Shown: positions 1 through 12,835 of the stretch, one piece after another
Numbering within the stretch: position 1 is the first letter of the stretch
Layout: each line of letters begins with the position of its first letter
From: Promethearchaeota archaeon
Lineage (GTDB): Archaea; Asgardarchaeota; Lokiarchaeia; Sigyniarchaeales; SOKP01
Direction: 5' to 3'
NCBI GenBank assembly: GCA_019058365.1
Contig: JAHPZE010000002.1
Coordinates: 128,001-192,000, forward strand
DNA length: 64,000 nt
Program-made: the position numbers and the translations under genes
Notes under the pieces: generated by a model
The model's input: the letters and a program-made list of their open reading frames with translations, nothing else
Told to the model about the DNA's origin: nothing
Databases searched by the model: none

Positions 1-625
1 CTCCTTTAAAAACACAATGGATCCTTTTTCGAGGGATTCCAACCACAGTACAAGCAGCCATTTCATCAGTTTCTCCTACGGGTAATGGATTGCATTCATA
101 ACAAGCATTTTTATAGGGGAAAACTGTATATACATGACCATGATAACCTGATACTCCTCCATCTACTAATGGCTTTCTAAATCTTATACACTGTGCATTT
201 AAATTTAGGCGTGCATTCATCGAATCAAGACCACCAATAACAACATCCGCAGCTTGGTATAGTGCTGGATTCAAACGTTCTAGAGAAGTATGGTATCCCT
301 TAACAATAATATTAGGATTAATTTCTTTTAACTTTCGAGCTGCAACAACTGCCTTAGGTTCTCCAATCTTCGCTCCCGTAAAAAGAACTTGACGGTTTAA
401 GTTAGAATGTTCAATAATGTCTAAATCAATAAGATCAAGGTGACCAACACCGAGCATAGCTAAGTTTTTAGCGATTTCACAACCTAAACCTCCAACCCCA
501 ACTATAAGAACTCTTGAATTCTTTACCACTTTCTGGGACCATCCCTCCAAACGAAATTGGCGGTCATAAAGGTCTCTCTCTTCCACTGATAATTCTTTTG
601 CGAAAAAATCTGTATCCTTATCCAC
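1..625 (-). CDS. E1-like ubiquitin/Ubl-activating enzyme (ThiF/UBA family, Uba2/Uba3-like); 3' end runs off the window
   Basis: Not in the ORF track; translated by hand from the minus strand: (M)DKDTDFFAKELSVEERDLYDRQFRLEGWSQKVVKNSRVLIVGVGGLGCEIAKNLAMLGVGHLDLIDLDIIEHSNLNRQVLF...GLDSMNAR...CYEC...AACTVVGIPRKRIHCV. Has YDRQ, GxGGLG, SNLNRQ and a catalytic-Cys motif CT..xP...HC. GTG at 625 follows GGTGA (631-635); an in-frame ATG lies at 637. Confidence 0.93.
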   Translation of the reverse strand, partial: MDKDTDFFAKELSVEERDLYDRQFRLEGWSQKVVKNSRVLIVGVGGLGCEIAKNLAMLGVGHLDLIDLDIIEHSNLNRQVLFTGAKIGEPKAVVAARKLKEINPNIIVKGYHTSLERLNPALYQAADVVIGGLDSMNARLNLNAQCIRFRKPLVDGGVSGYHGHVYTVFPYKNACYECNPLPVGETDEMAACTVVGIPRKRIHCVFKG

Positions 626-716
626 TATTATCACCATTAATTTTTACAAAAAAAATAAAAAAAATTGAAGGGCTAAATGCCCTTATATTATATTTTATGA
701 AGAAAGTTTTATAAGT

Positions 717-1049
717 CTACCCAGCCGTACTGGCGGGGATTAATAGAATATCATCACCATCATTTAAATCATAGTCGCTTAGGGAACTATTTTCATCCAT
801 AGTAACTCCTCCACTAGAAATATGGAAATCATTAGGATCAAGACCATATAAATTTCCTAATGTTTGTTTAATGTCTCTTACTGGATTACTGTCATTTACC
901 GTTAACTTCTCTTTTTTTTCGCCAGGACCAATTGTTGACATAAAATATAAAGTCAATTTCTTTCCTGCAGAAGGAATTTTACTTGCAGGAGTTTTAGATT
1001 TTACAGGTTCATTTACACCTAAATCTTCATCAAATTCATCAAAACTCAT
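717..1049 (-). CDS. Ubiquitin-like (beta-grasp) protein Ubl-1, acidic N-tail, ends in ...LLIPASTAG
   Basis: Ubiquitin-fold pattern (DIKQTLGNLYGLDPNDFHISSGGVTMDENSSLSDYDLNDGDDILLIP), terminal Gly, directly upstream of the E1 on the same strand. Confidence 0.88.
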   Translation of the reverse strand: MSFDEFDEDLGVNEPVKSKTPASKIPSAGKKLTLYFMSTIGPGEKKEKLTVNDSNPVRDIKQTLGNLYGLDPNDFHISSGGVTMDENSSLSDYDLNDGDDILLIPASTAG

Positions 1050-1318
1050 TCATTTCACTTCTCTTTTTTTTTTAATTTCTAATTTTTATTATACTTAATA
1101 AAATGGCGTTAAAAAGATATTATAAAACCCTTTGGAATGATTTTGAAGTATTCAAGATCCTCTCCAAAAATAAAAAGGTGAAAATTAGAATTCTTAAGAA
1201 ATTATATTATAAATTGTATGAAACCTTATCAATATATATATGAATTAAAAAAAGTTGTTTTAGAGAGAATATATAATTATAAAAACCAGATAAATCGACG
1301 GAATAAAAGTAAAGGCTT

Positions 1319-1990
1319 ATGAATCCTCTGGATGATGCAGAATCTGTTGTTCTTGAATTAGTAAGGGAGTATTTAACAAAGAAAACCTTCTTTTCAATTA
1401 GAGAAATTACCTCCTATATTAGCAATAGAGTACGATACAATCCAAATATAAATGAGAATAGAATAGAGTTAGTTTTGAAGAATTTAATTAAGCGGCGTGT
1501 TATTATCCCTGGAACAAAATTAATGAAAAATAATATTATAGAACATCCTAAAAGAAATGAAATCTTCAATTTTATTAAAAAAAATCCGTCAAATATTAAT
1601 GAAATAATGAAGGGTCTAAAAATTGGCAGTAATCAAGCTTTATGGCATTTATCATGTTTAGAAAAATTTCAATTTGTTAGATCAAAACAAATCAATAATC
1701 ATAGAATGTTCTTCAAATTTGATTCAAATCCAAAGCTTGACCCATTTTACTATTATTTAAAAAAAAATATCGTTCAAGATATAATAGAATTTATGAAAGT
1801 AGAAAATAAAGCATTAAAAATCACAGAGATAGCAAATGGTTTGAAAAAGAATCATAGTACTATTAAAAAATACATAGATATTTTAATAGATTTAAAATTA
1901 ATAAAAATTGAAAAAGAAACAAATAGGAATATATTCAAATTAGATCTTAGAAAATATTCTAATGTAAGAAAATCAATTCAAGGTGAATGA
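1319..1990 (+). CDS. Multi-winged-helix transcriptional regulator (ArsR/MarR-like repeats)
   Basis: Two to three wHTH-like segments (SNINEIMKGLKIGSNQALWHLSCLE; KITEIANGLKKNHSTIKKYIDILIDLKLI). Confidence 0.8.
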   Translation: MNPLDDAESVVLELVREYLTKKTFFSIREITSYISNRVRYNPNINENRIELVLKNLIKRRVIIPGTKLMKNNIIEHPKRNEIFNFIKKNPSNINEIMKGLKIGSNQALWHLSCLEKFQFVRSKQINNHRMFFKFDSNPKLDPFYYYLKKNIVQDIIEFMKVENKALKITEIANGLKKNHSTIKKYIDILIDLKLIKIEKETNRNIFKLDLRKYSNVRKSIQGE

Positions 1991-2074: not shown

Positions 2075-2875
2075 ATGAGAAAAAATTATAGAATTTTAAG
2101 TATTTTCACTCTTTATATAGTGTGTATTTTGTTTTATGTCTTTTTTTTCCTATATCGCATAGAAAATACACCATTATTTCTTGTTCTTACTATTGGTAGT
2201 GTTGCTGTTTTATCCACTAGTACAATTTATACAGTTTCAGTTTTACAGTCAAAAAGTAGTCCTGTCAAGACGATAAAAGAAAAAAAATATATCACAAAAC
2301 CAAAGTCAATTCAAAAGAAAACTTTCCCTATTATTGAAGATTATATTGATGCTCTACCTTCAATAGAAGACTATGTTGAATCAAATGAGTCCTATAAAGA
2401 TATGCCAATTATTGATAAATATATTTTTTCGATCTTAAGTCAGGAAGAATTAAATAAAATTGACTTGTTAGAGTTATCAAAAATGGACAAGATATTGTTT
2501 ATTAGAGAAATGATTTACTATGATCCAAATGAGAGAAAAGAATTAATCGAAAATATGTTAGAAAACAGAGATAATATTAATGGTGTAATACCTTATACAC
2601 CACCTAAAAGTTCTATAGGAATGGAAGATCAAATTCGTGTATATATACGATCACTTTTAGAACCTGGCGAGAAAACGAAAATTATAATAATAGATACAGC
2701 TGAATCAGCAAGAGTAGTTAAAGATAGAGTTGCACTATTATTTGATTATGAACAACAAGATTTTCTCTTATCTTCCGGAGGGATATTATTAGATGAGAAC
2801 TCACAGATAAAAGACTATAGTATTGATGATGATGATGAAATTGCTTTAATTCCCTCACGAAAAAAGAAAAATTAA
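2075..2875 (+). CDS. Membrane-anchored protein (2 N-terminal TM helices) with a C-terminal Ubl domain lacking the terminal Gly
   Basis: Hydrophobic at about aa 7-28 and 34-57; the last ~80 aa align with Ubl-1/Ubl-2 (PGEK, DF.LSSGG..LDENS...DY.I.D.D.I.LIP) but end in SRKKKN. Confidence 0.85.
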   Translation: MRKNYRILSIFTLYIVCILFYVFFFLYRIENTPLFLVLTIGSVAVLSTSTIYTVSVLQSKSSPVKTIKEKKYITKPKSIQKKTFPIIEDYIDALPSIEDYVESNESYKDMPIIDKYIFSILSQEELNKIDLLELSKMDKILFIREMIYYDPNERKELIENMLENRDNINGVIPYTPPKSSIGMEDQIRVYIRSLLEPGEKTKIIIIDTAESARVVKDRVALLFDYEQQDFLLSSGGILLDENSQIKDYSIDDDDEIALIPSRKKKN

Positions 2876-2922: not shown

Positions 2923-3348
2923 TTAGCCAGCAATACTAGCTGGAATTAAAAGTATATCCTCTCCATCAGAAATAGTATAATCGCTTAAAGGATTAATTTC
3001 ATCCATTGTTACACCACCACAAGATAAATGAAAGTCAGCAGGATCTAAACCAAATAAATTTGCAACGGTTTCTTTAATATCACCGACAAGATTTCCATCA
3101 TTAACAGTTAATTTTTGTTTTTTCTCACCCGGACCAATAGTAGACATAAAATATATTGAAATCTTCTTCCCTCCAGAAATAATTTTGGTAGTAGGAGTTT
3201 TTGTTTCAACTTCTTCTTCAAGACTCTTCTCAAAAGGTTCTTTTACATCTTCTTCTTTATTTTCTTCAAGATCTTCATCTAATTCTTCTAAATCTTCATC
3301 AAATTCTTGTTCATCAAATTCATCGTCAAATTCATTATCAAAACCCAT
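2923..3348 (-). CDS. Ubiquitin-like protein Ubl-2, long acidic N-tail, ends in ...LLIPASIAG
   Basis: Close paralog of 717..1049 (YFMSTIGPGEKK, GGVTMDE, LSDY, DILLIPAS.AG). Confidence 0.88.
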   Translation of the reverse strand: MGFDNEFDDEFDEQEFDEDLEELDEDLEENKEEDVKEPFEKSLEEEVETKTPTTKIISGGKKISIYFMSTIGPGEKKQKLTVNDGNLVGDIKETVANLFGLDPADFHLSCGGVTMDEINPLSDYTISDGEDILLIPASIAG

Positions 3349-3541: not shown

Positions 3542-4699
3542 ATGAACGACGAACCAATTCCAAAGTATCAAATTCGAGAAAAAACACCAATTGAAAAATT
3601 TGATATGATTTCTGATAAAAAATTGCTTAAAAAATTAAAAAAAGAAAGGATCAAGTTAGATAAAGAAAAGAATGAATGGGAAAAAGTTATTAACCAAATT
3701 GAAAATTACAAAGAAAATGTTGAAGATCTTGAGAAAAAAAGAAAAGAAAAAGAACTTAAAATTAAATATCTCCTTGAACAACGAGATAACTTACAGGATG
3801 AGTTAGAACGAACGAAAAATCAAATAAAACAACAGAATAGTGATTTAGCAACAAAAGATCAACAATTTAGAGAAAAAATCAGAAATAAAAATGAGGAATT
3901 GGATCAAAAAAATGCTGAATTAGAAAGATTTCAAGAAAAGTTAGATAATTTGAGAGAGGATATTGGAAATCAAAAAAAGAATCTAGAATGGGAAAAACAA
4001 AGAACAGAAAAACGAATAAAGGAAATTAAAACAAAAATTCCAGGTATGGAGAGAAGAGAAAATGCTTTAGAAAGAACTATTAATGATTTAGAGTCTAAAT
4101 TAATGGATTTAAGAAATGAAATCAAAGATTTAACTAAAGATCGAGATAATTTAAATAATGAAATTAATACTTTAAGGAGAGAAATTAATGATGAAAAAAA
4201 TCGAATTTCTGACGAAAAGAAAAAATTAAAAGAAGAAAGAGAAAAAACTCGTTACAAAAAACAAGATATTTCTCTACAATCTCGTGAAATTGATAAGAAA
4301 AAAACAGATCTGAAAAAATATAGAGATAAAGTTGAAAGTGATGTAAATAATTTGGAAAAAAGAAGACGCCAACAAGAAGCAAGATTAAAAGAATTAGAGA
4401 GAAAAGTTCCTGCTGCAGAAAACAAATATAACTCCTTAAATAGGAAAATTCCTAATTTAGAAGAAAAATTTAGAAGACTAAATAATGAATACAGACAATT
4501 AGAAAAACAAAAAGAGACCTTGGAAAGTGATAAAAATATAATTAAACGTGAAAGAGAAAAATTAGAAAAAGATAAACAACGATTTCTAAATGAAAAAAGG
4601 GCATTTGAAAGAGAAATAAGAAAGATAACAACGAAATCTCCATCAATTAAAACGAAAACACCCTCAAAAATTAATACTAAGACTCCTTCAAAATATTAA
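3542..4699 (+). CDS. Long coiled-coil protein with a Lys/Thr/Pro/Ser repeat tail
   Basis: About 330 aa of E/K/R-rich heptads, no Walker A motif; C-tail TKSPSIKTKTPSKINTKTPSKY. Confidence 0.8.
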   Translation: MNDEPIPKYQIREKTPIEKFDMISDKKLLKKLKKERIKLDKEKNEWEKVINQIENYKENVEDLEKKRKEKELKIKYLLEQRDNLQDELERTKNQIKQQNSDLATKDQQFREKIRNKNEELDQKNAELERFQEKLDNLREDIGNQKKNLEWEKQRTEKRIKEIKTKIPGMERRENALERTINDLESKLMDLRNEIKDLTKDRDNLNNEINTLRREINDEKNRISDEKKKLKEEREKTRYKKQDISLQSREIDKKKTDLKKYRDKVESDVNNLEKRRRQQEARLKELERKVPAAENKYNSLNRKIPNLEEKFRRLNNEYRQLEKQKETLESDKNIIKREREKLEKDKQRFLNEKRAFEREIRKITTKSPSIKTKTPSKINTKTPSKY

Positions 4700-7645: not shown

Positions 7646-8797
7646 ATGAGTGATGATATATTTGATCTAGTTGAATTAGCTAAGTCACGATCATCTGTAA
7701 GAGAAAGGTTCAATGAAATAGCTAAACATAACCAATGTCCTAATTCAAACCCTAATTGTGATGATGACAAATTTTTAGCAGATCTATTAAAAGTTTTGAA
7801 AATTAAAACATACGTGGTTGGTGTAGGAGGCGCTGGAAATAATACAGTTTCACGGTTAGATGATATGGGTATTAGTAATGCTGAGACAGTAAATATAAAT
7901 ACTGATGCGCATGACTTATATTACTCAAATTCAAAGCATAAAATATTAATTGGAAAAGAACGATGTAATGGATTAGGGTCAGGCAATGATCCTTCAGTTG
8001 GAGCTGAAGCAGCAGAGGAAGACCGCGACAGGTTAAATAAAACTTTAAACGCTGATATTATCTTTTTAACTTGTGGATTAGGTGGTGGTACGGGAACTGG
8101 AGCAGCACCCATTATTGCAGCAGAAGCAAAAAAAAATAATGCAATTGTAGTTACATTTTGCTCACTTCCATTTAACTCTGAAGGTAAGCAAAGATCAGTA
8201 AGAGCTCAACTAGGTTTAAAAAATCTTGCTAAATATTCTGATTTCCTAATTCCAATTCCAAATGATAATTTGCTAGGAATTGTCGGAAAAATACCAATGA
8301 TAACAGGCTTTAAGATTATGGATGAAATTCTAATAAGAAATATTGGTGAAGTTGTAAATTTAATTAATAATTGTGGTTTAGTTAACATTGATTTTGCAGA
8401 TGTAAAAAAAACACTTTTAGAAAACCCAAATGGAAAATATCCTTCTGGTTTAGTAGGAATAGCAGAATGCTTAGGCGAAGAATCAGATTTAATAGAAAAA
8501 GCCAGGTTAGCGTTAAATAATCCTCTTTTAAAACCAGACCCGAGACAAGTGAATAGATGTTTAGTATCTGTTACTGGTGATCATAATTTAACATTATCAA
8601 AAGTTGATAAAGTTGTATCAACTATATCAAATGAGATCCCAGAAACCGCTCAATTAAAATTTGGCGTTCAAAACAAGCCTGATATGGGATCAAAAATAAA
8701 AATAATGGTCTTAGCTAATGGGCCTGTTTCACCATATGTACGAGCTGCTGTAGATTCAGATAATGATTTTACACCAACGAGCATTGTTGGCTTTTAA
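7646..8797 (+). CDS. ftsZ: Cell division GTPase FtsZ
   Basis: GVGGAGNN, NTD, GGGTGTG, T7 loop GLVNIDFADV. Confidence 0.96.
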   Translation: MSDDIFDLVELAKSRSSVRERFNEIAKHNQCPNSNPNCDDDKFLADLLKVLKIKTYVVGVGGAGNNTVSRLDDMGISNAETVNINTDAHDLYYSNSKHKILIGKERCNGLGSGNDPSVGAEAAEEDRDRLNKTLNADIIFLTCGLGGGTGTGAAPIIAAEAKKNNAIVVTFCSLPFNSEGKQRSVRAQLGLKNLAKYSDFLIPIPNDNLLGIVGKIPMITGFKIMDEILIRNIGEVVNLINNCGLVNIDFADVKKTLLENPNGKYPSGLVGIAECLGEESDLIEKARLALNNPLLKPDPRQVNRCLVSVTGDHNLTLSKVDKVVSTISNEIPETAQLKFGVQNKPDMGSKIKIMVLANGPVSPYVRAAVDSDNDFTPTSIVGF

Positions 8798-8896
8798 AGC
8801 GAAAAAGTTGGATCTTTTTTACTACTCTTTAAAAATTTATCAACATTTATTCATTTTCACTTATAATTTAAATGAAATTATTTTAAGATCTCGAAC

Positions 8897-9343
8897 ATGA
8901 ATGATAAAAAAATGTCTATAGAAGACCTTAAGAAAGAAATTCGTAACTTTTTAGATAAAAGAAAAGTATTAGTTCTCTGTACTTGTAGCAATAATATTCC
9001 TCGTGCAACTCCAATGGATTTCTACATAGAGAAAGACAGTTTTAATATTTATGTAGGACCCGCTCCTGGAAGGAAAGTTAAGAATATGGAAGAAAATCCA
9101 ATTATTAGTATTGGTATATATACTCCTATGTCTGAAGGAAAAATACAAGGTATGCAAATTACAGCTACAGGTAAAGAAAGGTTGATATTTCTAAAAGAAG
9201 GAGATGAAGAATTCAAAAAAGCTCAAAAAATTGTACGAGGAAAAAGAAAACTAATTCTAAAAATAATACCTGAAAAAATTGAACTACTTGATTATGATTT
9301 TATCAAAAAAGGATATGGACGCCTTCAAACATTAGAAATATAA
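8897..9343 (+). CDS. Pyridoxamine 5'-phosphate oxidase-like (split-barrel flavin-binding) protein
   Basis: LCT...PRATP, RKVKNMEENP.ISIGI pattern. Confidence 0.75.
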   Translation: MNDKKMSIEDLKKEIRNFLDKRKVLVLCTCSNNIPRATPMDFYIEKDSFNIYVGPAPGRKVKNMEENPIISIGIYTPMSEGKIQGMQITATGKERLIFLKEGDEEFKKAQKIVRGKRKLILKIIPEKIELLDYDFIKKGYGRLQTLEI

Positions 9344-9363
9344 AAAAAAAATAATTTTAAATT

Positions 9364-9663
9364 TTATTCTTGCATTAATTTTATGGCTTCAGATCCTTCC
9401 ATTAAAGTGATTATTTTATAAAAATATCCCTCAAATTTAGTAAAAGCACTGAGACGTTTGGCTATTCCTTTCATCCCTGCATATAGTTTATCTTCAGGAA
9501 TTTCATATATATTATAAGTTTTAATATAATAATCTGATATTATCCATTGGTGTGTTCTCTTTACGAAATCAGGGTATTTTGGTGCTTTTCCTGAAAGATA
9601 AAACTTTAACATATCCTCTACAATATGAGGTGGATATTTAACTTTACTCATGACATAAACCAT
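9364..9663 (-). CDS. Small hypothetical protein
   Basis: Open frame; start moved to the ATG at 9663, which follows a GGTGA site. Confidence 0.6.
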   Translation of the reverse strand: MVYVMSKVKYPPHIVEDMLKFYLSGKAPKYPDFVKRTHQWIISDYYIKTYNIYEIPEDKLYAGMKGIAKRLSAFTKFEGYFYKIITLMEGSEAIKLMQE

Positions 9664-9868
9664 TTGGTGATTCACCTTTCTAACAATTTTGATTAATTAA
9701 TCTTGGATTTGTAAAATCAAATATATTGAATTATTATTAAAATTTTTATATTTTTAGAAAAATTCAAAAATAGGAAATAATAATCTTCTAAAAGTAAATG
9801 TTTTAGGAGAAAATAAATTCTTTCATTTAATACAAATAAAAATTCTTGAAAATTTCCAACTGATAAAT

Positions 9869-12835
9869 ATGATTTCTGAGGAAGAACAAGAGGATCTTAA
9901 GACAACACAATCTGATAAAGACTTAAAAAGAGTTTTTAAAATAATTTCCTCGAGAAATCCTGATGCTTATTTTCCTACTAAGGAGCTAAGAAAATTAGGA
10001 TATATGAGAAAAAAGTGTGAATGTTGTGGCACACATTTTTGGACTACAATTAAAGATAGAGAAGTATGTGGAGATCCTGTATGTTCTGGAGGTTTTCAAG
10101 TAGTCATAGATAATCCTTCCAAAGTTAAATTATCTTTTATTGGAGTTTGGGAAAAAATTGTTGAGATCTTAGAACCAAGAGGATATGTCCCAATTAAAAG
10201 ATATCCTTGTGTAGCTCGATGGAATCCGACTTCTGAATTTACAATCGCATCAATATCAGCGTTTCAACCGTATGTTATTACAGGAGAAGTAGAGCCCCCT
10301 GCCAAGAAGCTGTTAATCCCTCAATTTTGTTTAAGATTCAATGATATTGAAAATGTTGGAATAACGGGCTCTCATAACACTGGTTTTGTTATGATAGGGC
10401 AGCATACTTTTGTGCCACCTGAAGAATGGAATCAGGGGGAACTTTTTATGGATATACATGATTTTATTCATGAAGGTGTTGGTCTGCCAAAGGAAGAAAT
10501 AATAATTCATGAAGATTCATGGGCAGGTGGGGGCTCATTTGGGTGTAGCCTTGAGTTCTTCAGTAGAGGAGTAGAGCTATTTAATCAAGTTTATACTATG
10601 TTTGAACAAACTCCTCAGGGACCACGTGAACTTAAACTTAAAGTTCTTGATATGGGACTTGGTCAAGACCGTGTAGCATGGTTCTCTCAAGGTACTCCTA
10701 ACATGTATGAAGCCATTTTTCCATTTGTTTTATCAAAATTAAGAGAAATCACTAAAATTGAGTTAGATTTAGTATTATATAATCAGTTTTCACGATTTTC
10801 AGCTTATCTAAATGTGGATGAAGTAGATAATATTGATGATGCTTGGAATAGTGTTGCAAAAGAATTGAATATTGGTGTAAAGGAACTCAGAAATAAAATA
10901 ATGCCTATGACTGCTCTTTACTCAATAGCTGAACATGCTCGTAGCTTGCTTTTTGCTATAAATGATGGAAAGCTTCCTTCAAATGTTGGTGGAGGATATA
11001 ATTTAAGGGTAATATTTAGACGAGCTATTAGTTTTATAGATAAATTCAATTGGGATATTGATATAGCAGATGTGTGTATATGGCATGCTGATGAATTAAA
11101 AAGTATTTTTCCTGAAGTTTCAGAACATTTGGATGAAATTCGAGAAATATTAGATGTCGAAAGGGAGAAATTTTATGCAACTAAGCAAAAAGCTGGAAAA
11201 ATTTTAGAAAAATTGCTGAAAAAAGGAGAGATATCCACTGACACTCTAATAGAATTATATGATTCTAATGGTATAAGTCCAGACATGGTAAAAACGGCAG
11301 CTAAAAAATATGGTATAAAAGTACACATTCCAGATGATTTTTATAATTTAGTGGTAGAAAGACATGAAATAACTGAGCAGGTCCATGCAACCGGAAAACA
11401 AATTGAATTAAATTTAGAAGGAATTCCTGAAACAAAATCTCTTTATTATTATGACTATACCGAGACTTATAATGAAGCGAAAGTGTTAAAAATCATTGAT
11501 AAAATGGTTGTTTTGGATAAAACAATTGCATACCCTACTTCTGGAGGACAACTTCATGATATAGGTACAATAAATGGGCAAAAATTCTCTGATGCTTTTA
11601 AACAAGGGAACTATACGATTCATGTTTTAGATGAAAAACCTACTTTTAAGGAGGGAGATATCGTTAAAGTTGAAGTTGATAAGAATTGGCGTACTCAACT
11701 CTCCCAACATCACACTGCTACTCACATTCTAAATGCTGCGGCAAGAGACATTTTAGGAAGCCATGTAAATCAAGCTGGTGCTAAAAAAGCATTTAAAAGC
11801 TCTCATTTGGATATAACCCACTATGAACAAATTCCAAGAGAAAAACTTCTTGTAATTGAAAATAAAGCAAATCAGATAGTTGAAGAAGGAATAGATCTTA
11901 ATCTCAGTTTCATCCCTCGTGCTGAAGCAGAACAAAAATATGGAATGACGATTTATCAAGGAGGTGCAGTACCGGGAAAATATTTAAGAATTGTTGAGAT
12001 ACCTGGGGTTGATGTTGAAGCTTGTGGGGGCACACATCTAAATAATACTTCAGAAACAGGTTATATCCATATTATTAAATCACAAAAGATACAGGATGGA
12101 ATAGTCAGGCTTACTTTTGTAGCTGGAGAGGCTACAAATAAATTAAAAGAAAAACATAAAAGAATTCTTAATGAATTAAAAGATATGTTAAATGTTGATC
12201 GCAAGCAACTTGTTGGACGTGTAAAAGAAATAATTGAAAAGTGGAAAAATGTAAATAAAGCATTAAAAACTGGTAATGTAGATGAGAGGGATTTACAATT
12301 AATCTCCTCTGAAACGTTTGAAGGTGATGTATTATCAGAAATTTCTCAAGTTTTAAGCATTAAAAAAGATGATATATCAAATAAAATTCAAAAATTATAC
12401 AATGAATGGAAAGAAGGAAAACAAAAGTTAATTGCAATCAAGGACCTGTTTAGCGATGAGGCAATTGAAAAACGGATAGAAAATGCTCATTTGTATCACA
12501 ATGCTAAGTTAATTTTTGAATCTACAGAAGATTTAACTCAAAATGATATAAAAAATTTAAGTCAAAACATTTTAAAGAAAGATCCTAATACAATTACATT
12601 TATATCAAATCAAAGTGAAAAAGGTATAATGCTTATGGGTATGTCAGGGAGTAAATCATCAATGGAATCAGATATTAATGTCGGTAATATTGTATCAGCA
12701 ATAAAAAAGCACTACAATGGAAAAGGTGGAGGAAAAAACGATTTTGGCCAAGTCTTAATAACAAAAAAAGGAGTTACTTCAGCAGAAGTTTTACAATATA
12801 TAAAAGATAATTATATCAAAGGTAAAGATAAATAA
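9869..12835 (+). CDS. alaS: Alanyl-tRNA synthetase (archaeal type)
   Basis: FTIASISAFQP, CLRFND, LDMGLG, editing-domain HTATH and CGGTH, C-terminal DHHA1 GGG. Confidence 0.97.
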   Translation: MISEEEQEDLKTTQSDKDLKRVFKIISSRNPDAYFPTKELRKLGYMRKKCECCGTHFWTTIKDREVCGDPVCSGGFQVVIDNPSKVKLSFIGVWEKIVEILEPRGYVPIKRYPCVARWNPTSEFTIASISAFQPYVITGEVEPPAKKLLIPQFCLRFNDIENVGITGSHNTGFVMIGQHTFVPPEEWNQGELFMDIHDFIHEGVGLPKEEIIIHEDSWAGGGSFGCSLEFFSRGVELFNQVYTMFEQTPQGPRELKLKVLDMGLGQDRVAWFSQGTPNMYEAIFPFVLSKLREITKIELDLVLYNQFSRFSAYLNVDEVDNIDDAWNSVAKELNIGVKELRNKIMPMTALYSIAEHARSLLFAINDGKLPSNVGGGYNLRVIFRRAISFIDKFNWDIDIADVCIWHADELKSIFPEVSEHLDEIREILDVEREKFYATKQKAGKILEKLLKKGEISTDTLIELYDSNGISPDMVKTAAKKYGIKVHIPDDFYNLVVERHEITEQVHATGKQIELNLEGIPETKSLYYYDYTETYNEAKVLKIIDKMVVLDKTIAYPTSGGQLHDIGTINGQKFSDAFKQGNYTIHVLDEKPTFKEGDIVKVEVDKNWRTQLSQHHTATHILNAAARDILGSHVNQAGAKKAFKSSHLDITHYEQIPREKLLVIENKANQIVEEGIDLNLSFIPRAEAEQKYGMTIYQGGAVPGKYLRIVEIPGVDVEACGGTHLNNTSETGYIHIIKSQKIQDGIVRLTFVAGEATNKLKEKHKRILNELKDMLNVDRKQLVGRVKEIIEKWKNVNKALKTGNVDERDLQLISSETFEGDVLSEISQVLSIKKDDISNKIQKLYNEWKEGKQKLIAIKDLFSDEAIEKRIENAHLYHNAKLIFESTEDLTQNDIKNLSQNILKKDPNTITFISNQSEKGIMLMGMSGSKSSMESDINVGNIVSAIKKHYNGKGGGKNDFGQVLITKKGVTSAEVLQYIKDNYIKGKDK

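Follow-up and report, generated by a model that had tools for sequence, protein, structure and literature searches.

A membrane-tethered ubiquitin-like protein of a Lokiarchaeial Ubl locus as a candidate anti-regulator of a neighboring tandem winged-helix protein

Introduction

Eukaryotes have no closer known relatives than the Asgard archaea. Both the membrane sequestration of regulators and the use of integral ubiquitin-like (Ubl) domains are known kinds of arrangement, and several described systems are close to the one reported here. In membrane anti-sigma/ECF sigma pairs such as RseA–sigmaE and RsgI–SigI, the cytoplasmic domain of a membrane protein masks a regulator encoded by a neighboring gene. 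HERPUD1/HERP, Usa1, and TMUB1/2 are eukaryotic membrane-anchored Ubl-domain proteins of ERAD. In ubiquitin-fusion degradation (UFD), a non-cleavable ubiquitin fusion serves as a chain primer and as a degron. The ubiquitin operons of Caldiarchaeum subterraneum and of Asgard archaea, in the excerpts of their descriptions used here, encode ubiquitin, E1, E2, a small RING protein, and an Rpn11-like JAMM protease (PMC5654768, PMC9192718).

We analyzed a 64-kb stretch of DNA (contig C34:128001-192000; "the window") from a Lokiarchaeial genome of 4.74 Mb in 54 contigs. Near its start lies the gene of a membrane protein, referred to here as TM-Ubl, in which a membrane anchor and a small helical domain (the "tail") precede a C-terminal Ubl domain. 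The gene is flanked by those of a tandem winged-helix protein (wHTH) and of a free Ubl (Ubl-2), and the wHTH gene is divergent from an operon that begins with a second free Ubl (Ubl-1). The coordinates of these features are collected in Table 1.

Compared to the Caldiarchaeum and Asgard operons, as far as the excerpts cover them, this locus has a similar set of components, namely Ubl, a ThiF-type E1, a UQ_con E2, and a JAB/MPN protein, and the Foldseek matches of TM-Ubl include the Caldiarchaeum ubiquitin 6fno_D. However, the free Ubls end in -AG here and not in -GG, and the same excerpts (PMC5654768, PMC9192718) mention neither a membrane-tethered Ubl nor a dedicated wHTH/anti-regulator pair.

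Compared to the anti-sigma/ECF sigma pairs, TM-Ubl would follow the same logic in two respects: according to a complex prediction, its cytoplasmic part binds the regulator encoded by the adjacent gene and hides the surface with which that regulator would read DNA, and it has paralogs with large outside sensor domains, many such pairs being found per genome. The ancestry, however, is not alike. The tail shows no sequence or fold relation to known anti-sigma domains, either in a Pfam scan of 57 instances or in fold searches of the PDB. Furthermore, its partner is a tandem winged-helix protein instead of a sigma factor, and TM-Ubl carries a cytoplasmic Ubl and no outside domain.

Like HERP, Usa1, and TMUB1, TM-Ubl combines an integral, non-conjugatable cytoplasmic Ubl with a TM anchor, and it is encoded together with an E2 and a polytopic Zn-finger protein that is a candidate ligase. 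This likeness is limited to the beta-grasp fold. The Ubl of TM-Ubl, unlike those of the ERAD proteins, is C-terminal and a recent paralog of the organism's own modifier, and the rest of the protein is a predicted regulator-binding module. Like the substrates of UFD, TM-Ubl has a ubiquitin fold fused without a cleavable Gly-Gly, and two of its lysines, K200 and K216, are found without exception in the tethered Ubl as well as in the free Ubl-1 and Ubl-2. The comparison with UFD is used here as an analogy for the proposed input step of TM-Ubl only.

In the literature searched, the tail domain, its pairing with a Lokiarchaeial tandem winged-helix protein, and the placement of a Ubl where related proteins have a sensor appear to be undescribed. 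The search returned no description of the tethered Ubl or of tail/wHTH pairs; its coverage was incomplete, and it is therefore weak evidence for novelty.

Table 1. Features of the TM-Ubl locus, in window coordinates
Feature	Position	Strand	Basis
N-terminal part of E1 (ThiF family)	2..637	-	full gene, E2, JAMM, and multi-TM Zn-finger protein lie before the window start
Free Ubl-1 (110 aa, ends STAG)	717..1049	-	first gene of the Ubl-E1-E2-JAMM-membrane Zn-finger operon
Divergent intergenic region Ubl-1/wHTH, candidate promoter/operator	1050..1318	.	conserved blocks in an alignment of 5 genomes
Tandem winged-helix protein wHTH (223 aa, P0004)	1319..1990	+	Pfam, orthologs, complex prediction
TM-Ubl gene (266 aa, P0001)	2075..2875	+	ORF list and translation
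TM hairpin (TM1 ~7-27, 6-residue loop, TM2 ~33-57)	2093..2245	+	AF2 model, charge distribution, profile positions 33-57
Basic linker, probably disordered (residues 58-84, net charge ~ +8)	2246..2326	+	pLDDT 30-54
Tail domain (residues ~85-178)	2327..2608	+	alignment, AF2 model, C-termini of other membrane proteins, predicted wHTH interface
Ubl (beta-grasp) domain (residues ~184-261)	2624..2857	+	paralogy to Ubl-1/Ubl-2, AF2, Foldseek
C-terminal SRKKKN, no Gly	2855..2872	+	family alignment, R262-K263 invariant
Free Ubl-2 (141 aa, ends SIAG), convergent with TM-Ubl	2923..3348	-	part of the inserted wHTH/TM-Ubl/Ubl-2 module

The TM-Ubl protein

The original prediction had described two TM helices, a basic linker, a helical domain, and a Ubl, and this layout was confirmed by the open reading frame, the distribution of charges, and the AF2 model. 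The two hydrophobic stretches are modeled as helices 3-26 and 32-57, and short helices follow at residues 88-163. The net charge is +3 ahead of TM1, 0 in the six-residue loop, and +8 past TM2, a pattern consistent with an N-in/C-in hairpin that leaves the remainder of the protein in the cytoplasm. The proposed tethering to the membrane is supported by this predicted topology. A Pfam scan of TM-Ubl gave no match outside the Ubl domain.

Homologs of TM-Ubl number 375; they are of ~264 aa and 60-92% identity, and all are labelled Asgard (Promethearchaeota, Loki and similar). Among 301 sampled genomes of the phylum, 46 (the source genome counted) encode the full-length protein, and none was found in the remainder. 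The carriers belong to one family and four genera (19 of 21 and 24 of 28 members in two of them, and some members of two more).

The C-terminal domain adopts the beta-beta-alpha-beta-beta order of the beta-grasp fold, according to both AF2 and Foldseek. In the AF2 model, the fold spans residues 186-260 (pLDDT 70-86), with strands at 186-193, 201-207, 230-234, and 254-260 and a helix at 212-222. Foldseek returned 167 PDB matches at E<=0.001 for the TM-Ubl model, and the best 50 of the 167 are mostly Ub, NEDD8, SUMO, and ISG15. TM-Ubl itself missed the gathering score of PF00240 (17.4 bits vs a cut-off of 25.4); Ubl-1 clears it at 25.8 bits, and many TM-Ubl orthologs carry a precomputed PF00240 hit. 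The paralogy to the two neighboring Ubls, as first proposed, is evident from 36% identity to each of them (E 9e-18 for Ubl-1 and 8e-16 for Ubl-2), and a PGEK hairpin, SSGG, and D.I.LIP elements are common to all three proteins.

The tethered and the free Ubls differ at their ends, where the AG of Ubl-1 and Ubl-2 is replaced in TM-Ubl, as had been noticed. Among 120 members of the TM-Ubl family, the end reads LIP-S-R-K followed by 0-8 residues, and none has a Gly where the free Ubls have their -AG. A terminal Gly is absent from 119 of the 120, the sole G end (DRG) having arisen by chance. Conservation does not extend to the lysine run, for the consensus reads SRKEKN, with R262 and K263 as its only invariant residues. 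A conjugatable type 1 Ubl has a C-terminal Gly, exposed or exposable by processing, for adenylation by E1, and TM-Ubl has none; the lack of a conjugatable Gly end throughout the 120 members supports the earlier claim that E1 cannot activate it. Processing by JAMM to liberate the Ubl from TM-Ubl was also considered and was dropped, because no family member has such a Gly at or past the end of the fold. Collectively, these results support the view that TM-Ubl, as modeled, is a membrane-tethered, cytoplasmic paralog of the free -AG Ubls.

The locus and its neighbors

The minus-strand stretch before the window encodes a ThiF E1 of 421 aa, a UQ_con E2 of 175 aa (a canonical member of this family, E 5.6e-26), a JAB/MPN protease of 276 aa, and a multi-TM protein of 394 aa with a C-terminal Zn finger. 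The gene order of this Ubl-1/E1/E2/JAMM/Zn-finger locus repeats in other genomes. The wHTH gene, which had been predicted to encode a regulator divergent from Ubl-1/E1, has this orientation and, in each of the nine loci read, immediately precedes TM-Ubl. Co-occurrence of TM-Ubl with the E1/E2 locus also holds across genomes: TM-Ubl and E2 are on one contig, about 2.8-3.9 kb apart, in 35 of the 46 TM-Ubl genomes. Most of the others have the two genes on separate contigs, and fragmented assemblies are common among them.

In a closed 3.3-Mb genome, the locus is split, with an intact E1/E2 about 104 kb away (L007:6159-6569 (-); G301:C1:566426-568284). A 5' fragment of E1 adjoins Ubl-1 in this genome, and an actin-family gene is found ~1 kb beyond the fragment. 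The full-length E1 match contains one in-frame TAA.

The orthologous E2 is more widespread than TM-Ubl, and many genomes have the E2 and no TM-Ubl. TM-Ubl is therefore an accessory to the system and not a core part of it. Loci without TM-Ubl read TMZnf-JAMM-E2-E1-Ubl <-> coiled-coil, which indicates that wHTH, TM-Ubl, and Ubl-2 form an insertion into an older locus. In every locus read, the inserted wHTH/TM-Ubl module keeps at least one free Ubl gene alongside. The coiled-coil protein (385 aa; window 3542-4699 (+)) is a conserved divergent neighbor of the Ubl gene, and since its gene is kept even where TM-Ubl is missing (L014, L015, L016), it may belong to the older core locus.

A block in the Ubl-1/wHTH intergenic region, TTGGAATGATTTTGAAGT at 1132-1149, is identical in the four closer of five aligned genomes and has three changes in the most distant one. 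No second copy of it was found in the 64-kb window or near Ubl-2, and no operator was defined. This block is a candidate regulatory site.

Both Ubl-1 and Ubl-2 have acidic, probably disordered N-terminal extensions, of ~30 and ~60 aa, respectively; such extensions ahead of the beta-grasp are unusual for ubiquitin-type modifiers. A third free Ubl (110 aa, with a STAG end) is encoded elsewhere in the genome (L006:7117-7449 (-) = G000:C16:301117-301449), and its gene is 85% identical in DNA to the Ubl-1 region. About 0.8 kb from it lies the gene of an 876-aa polytopic membrane protein (8287-10917, -) with a CPBP/CAAX-protease-like "ELLFRG" motif at its C-terminus.

The tail domain as a separate module

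A profile of TM-Ubl residues 1-178 was searched against 1.84 billion representatives. The search located the tail (~78-168) at the very C-terminal end of proteins that are 443-2081 aa long. One TM helix and a basic linker usually come before it, and some of the proteins have it in tandem. The ectodomains of these proteins are of beta-helix/NosD, Laminin_G, TSP3, beta-propeller, Ig, or WD40 type. By their sequences, these large proteins are surface proteins with a cytoplasmic tail. TM2 of TM-Ubl contains a conserved G-S-V..LS.S..Y motif, and the TM helix ahead of the tail in the paralogs has it as well. R154 does not vary across 57 instances of the domain, and F142 is kept in at least 90% of them. 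The AF2 model shows two short helices and a small three-helix bundle (core pLDDT 79-90).

Searches for relatives of the tail among known domains gave no family of this kind. A Pfam scan of the 57 instances yielded no significant family; the best matches, to TRI4_N in 7 members and to Cue1_U7BR in 3 members at E 0.02, were at noise level and were discounted. Foldseek against the PDB found nothing at E<=0.001. In a VIA-align search of 48,161 chains, the best match was a designed protein at Z 5.9, which is below the level asked for a small helical bundle, and the others were generic three-helix bundles at Z < 5. Besides the family of the tail itself, a shape search of the ESM Atlas brought up a single further Promethearchaeota cluster and weak rows from bacteria, and a feature search of the Atlas gave no usable hit.

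Some of the tail-bearing proteins also contain an eight-ligand Zn finger, C-x2-H...C-x2-C-x4-C-x2-C...C-x2-C, of ~50 aa. Twenty such stretches are present in 19 of 75 tail representatives, usually directly ahead of the tail (e.g., P0147, P0149, P0154, P0165, P0169, and P0188); P0158 has the finger after the tail and P0184 has two copies. The finger is cross-brace-like. Its identification as a RING was considered and rejected, because the Pfam hits to RING, B-box, IBR, and double-zinc-ribbon families were all sub-threshold and an HMM of the cassette gave no match to the membrane Zn-finger protein of the locus.

Pairing of the tail with winged-helix proteins

The wHTH protein matches HTH_5 with 30.4 bits (cut-off 22) at residues 76-121 and HrcA_DNA-bdg with 24.5 bits (cut-off 21), and these Pfam matches suggest that it binds DNA. 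Its orthologs are 71-97% identical, and its conservation is even better than that of TM-Ubl. The source genome encodes a single tail domain and a single close wHTH, adjacent to each other; multiple wHTH paralogs, 5-23 per genome, were found in five genomes of three other genera (3-4.6 Mb each).

In these five genomes, a same-strand wHTH paralog lies within 6 kb of 27 of the 30 tail-domain hits. The chance expectation, given 5-23 copies per 3-4.6 Mb, is a few per cent, although the pairs within and between genomes are kin and not independent samples. The wHTH gene of a pair either precedes the large gene, as it precedes TM-Ubl in the source genome, or follows the tail at a distance of 40-500 bp. 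A detectable tail is near only 23 of 48 wHTH paralogs.

The pairing is also seen within single proteins. Two fusions, each a single ORF of 1107 or 985 aa, combine a signal/TM segment, an ectodomain, a TM helix, the tail, and a complete tandem wHTH (L019:2747-6070 (-) and L020:2195-5152 (-)). One of the two is also present in a public protein set, where its annotation mentions nothing but a beta-helix repeat protein; it was the only longer, fused form of the wHTH recovered there by a word-based search, a method that is weak for such forms.

In the arrangement with the wHTH upstream, a short wHTH-like gene (135-141 aa) was observed between the full wHTH and the sensor gene (L021:4876-5283 (-), L023:1668-2093 (+)). 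These short genes match only positions ~20-132 of the wHTH profile.

The predicted complex of wHTH and TM-Ubl

The complex of wHTH (24-row alignment) and TM-Ubl residues 78-266 (22 rows) was predicted from our own unpaired alignments. Three runs gave ipSAE values of 0.78, 0.79, and 0.77, compared to 0.35 for the best of three controls. Of 80 solved complexes, 58 come up to the ipSAE mark taken as reference, as do 2 of 110 mismatched pairs; these counts hold only roughly here because our own alignments were used. At least 88% of the contacts agree among the three runs, and the pLDDT of the partner is at least 79. As the tail domain has no solved homolog, it is improbable that the high score reproduces a complex already known to the model.

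The predicted interface joins wHTH residues 15-129 with TM-Ubl residues 87-183, F142 included, and involves no residue of the Ubl. The tightest contacts are those of wHTH 24-26 and 62-65 with TM-Ubl 117-119 and those of wHTH 108-112 with F142, L157, and 160-161. They cover wHTH helix 103-118, the putative recognition helix of the ArsR-type fold. At the level of a model's confidence, this prediction supports binding of the tail to wHTH.

The original prediction had treated the helical domain as a spacer and wHTH as a mere neighbor. The pairing of tails with wHTH paralogs, the fusions, and the predicted interface do not support that view of the main function. The evidence points instead to the helical domain as the working part of TM-Ubl, a binding module for the wHTH encoded upstream.

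A proposed mechanism and its alternatives

Our preferred reading, which we hold to be reasonably probable, is that TM-Ubl is a membrane anti-regulator of the neighboring wHTH, with the cytoplasmic Ubl as its putative input. It is the simplest account of a tail that is a separate module, is paired with wHTH, and is predicted to bind it. An anti-regulator is expected to stay adjacent to its cognate regulator, and adjacency is indeed kept (27 of 30 tail hits, two fusions, and nine of nine loci). In the mechanism that we propose, the N-in/C-in hairpin would anchor TM-Ubl in the membrane, and its cytoplasmic tail (~85-178) would bind the wHTH encoded directly upstream. By covering the first two winged-helix units, including the putative recognition helix, the tail would keep the regulator off DNA. 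In a Lokiarchaeial family of large surface proteins, each of them paired with a separate wHTH paralog, the same module of TM helix and tail would form the output end.

The Ubl may be the input, because the siblings of TM-Ubl have outside sensors and TM-Ubl has none, carrying instead a Ubl of its own locus behind the tail. The domain could be bound or modified by E1, E2, or the membrane Zn-finger ligase, by JAMM, or by Ubl receptors, and the conserved K200 and K216 are possible chain-priming sites or a degron, by analogy with UFD substrates. Release of the regulator would then depend on how active the Ubl system is, and the targets of the released regulator would be the Ubl genes and the divergent Ubl-E1-E2-JAMM operon. 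This operon is a likely target since the wHTH/TM-Ubl pair is divergent from it and is always found beside a free Ubl gene. A tentative extension, which we see as possible but doubtful, is that the fused, non-removable Ubl is a self-reporting sensor on which the cell's E1, E2, and membrane ligase, or else JAMM or a Ubl receptor, would act, and through which the activity of the Ubl system leads to release of a transcription factor that sets the expression of the same system.

The same conserved Ubl, with its invariant surface residues, could serve a membrane adaptor or scaffold, the main idea of the original prediction, that recruits E1/E2, the Zn-finger ligase, JAMM, or Cdc48/proteasome-type receptors in the manner of HERP, Usa1, or TMUB1 in ERAD, with wHTH acting only as a transcriptional regulator. 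The locus does hold a multi-TM Zn-finger protein, an E2, and a JAMM, and TM-Ubl adjoins the E2 in 35 of 46 genomes. However, some genomes that encode the membrane Zn-finger protein and the orthologous E2 lack TM-Ubl, and an adaptor leaves unexplained both the strong predicted interface and the pairing or fusion of tails with wHTH paralogs across many unrelated sensor proteins. We therefore judge this explanation unlikely as an account of the whole, although an adaptor role is compatible with an anti-regulator because the Ubl lies outside the predicted wHTH interface. The notion of a decoy, or competitive inhibitor, that ties up E1 or JAMM non-productively and lowers conjugation near the membrane draws on the 36% identity of TM-Ubl to true substrates, on the PGEK, SSGG, and D.I.LIP elements common to both, and on the absence of a Gly for adenylation. 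It fares worst of the readings considered and seems very improbable, as it does not account for the conserved tail domain and the wHTH pairing, and a one-to-one decoy at the membrane would be a weak inhibitor of a soluble enzyme. The adaptor and decoy ideas of the original prediction could hold alongside an anti-regulator, and the presentation of acceptor lysines, also raised there, may be another role of the Ubl domain.

A different question is whether wHTH is a transcription factor at all. The subunits of ESCRT-II are tandem winged helices as well, and wHTH could likewise be a structural or adaptor protein, in which case the tail–wHTH pairs would bring cytoplasmic machinery to membrane proteins and TM-Ubl would be a Ubl-bearing docking site. 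Use of the surface that would otherwise read DNA for the predicted interface is in line with this idea, as is the suggestion (PMC9192718) that the Ubl locus of these archaea acts with ESCRT. The matches of wHTH to HTH_5 (ArsR) and HrcA-type families above the Pfam cut-offs argue against it, and a scan of the protein that took in matches up to E = 1 contained no ESCRT-II family. Furthermore, the paralogs, 5-23 per genome and each beside a different sensor-like ectodomain protein, show the pattern of signaling pairs. A non-transcriptional wHTH is thus quite unlikely in our estimate. The parallel with ER UFMylation drawn in the original prediction found no support: the E2 is a canonical UQ_con protein, nothing resembling UFM1, UFC1, or UFL1 was seen in the proteins scanned, and the Pfam scans contained no family of a UFM1 pathway (UFC1-type E2, UBA5-type E1, or UFL1/DDRGK1 complex).

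Significance

As an anti-regulator, TM-Ubl probably ties control of the Ubl tagging genes to the state of the tagging system. The locus offers a concrete, testable control circuit composed of a tethered Ubl, a new regulator-binding domain, and a winged-helix factor, and it exposes a whole Lokiarchaeial family of membrane sensor/regulator pairs. Should the Ubl be the input, ubiquitin-fold domains that are not conjugated were already in use for signaling at membranes before eukaryotes. If it is not, the tail–wHTH module remains a new archaeal device for transmembrane signaling. The self-reporting sensor, if true, would represent a ubiquitin-fold feedback loop at the membrane in archaeal relatives of eukaryotes, built on apparently undescribed Lokiarchaeial pairs of transmembrane sensors and winged-helix proteins.
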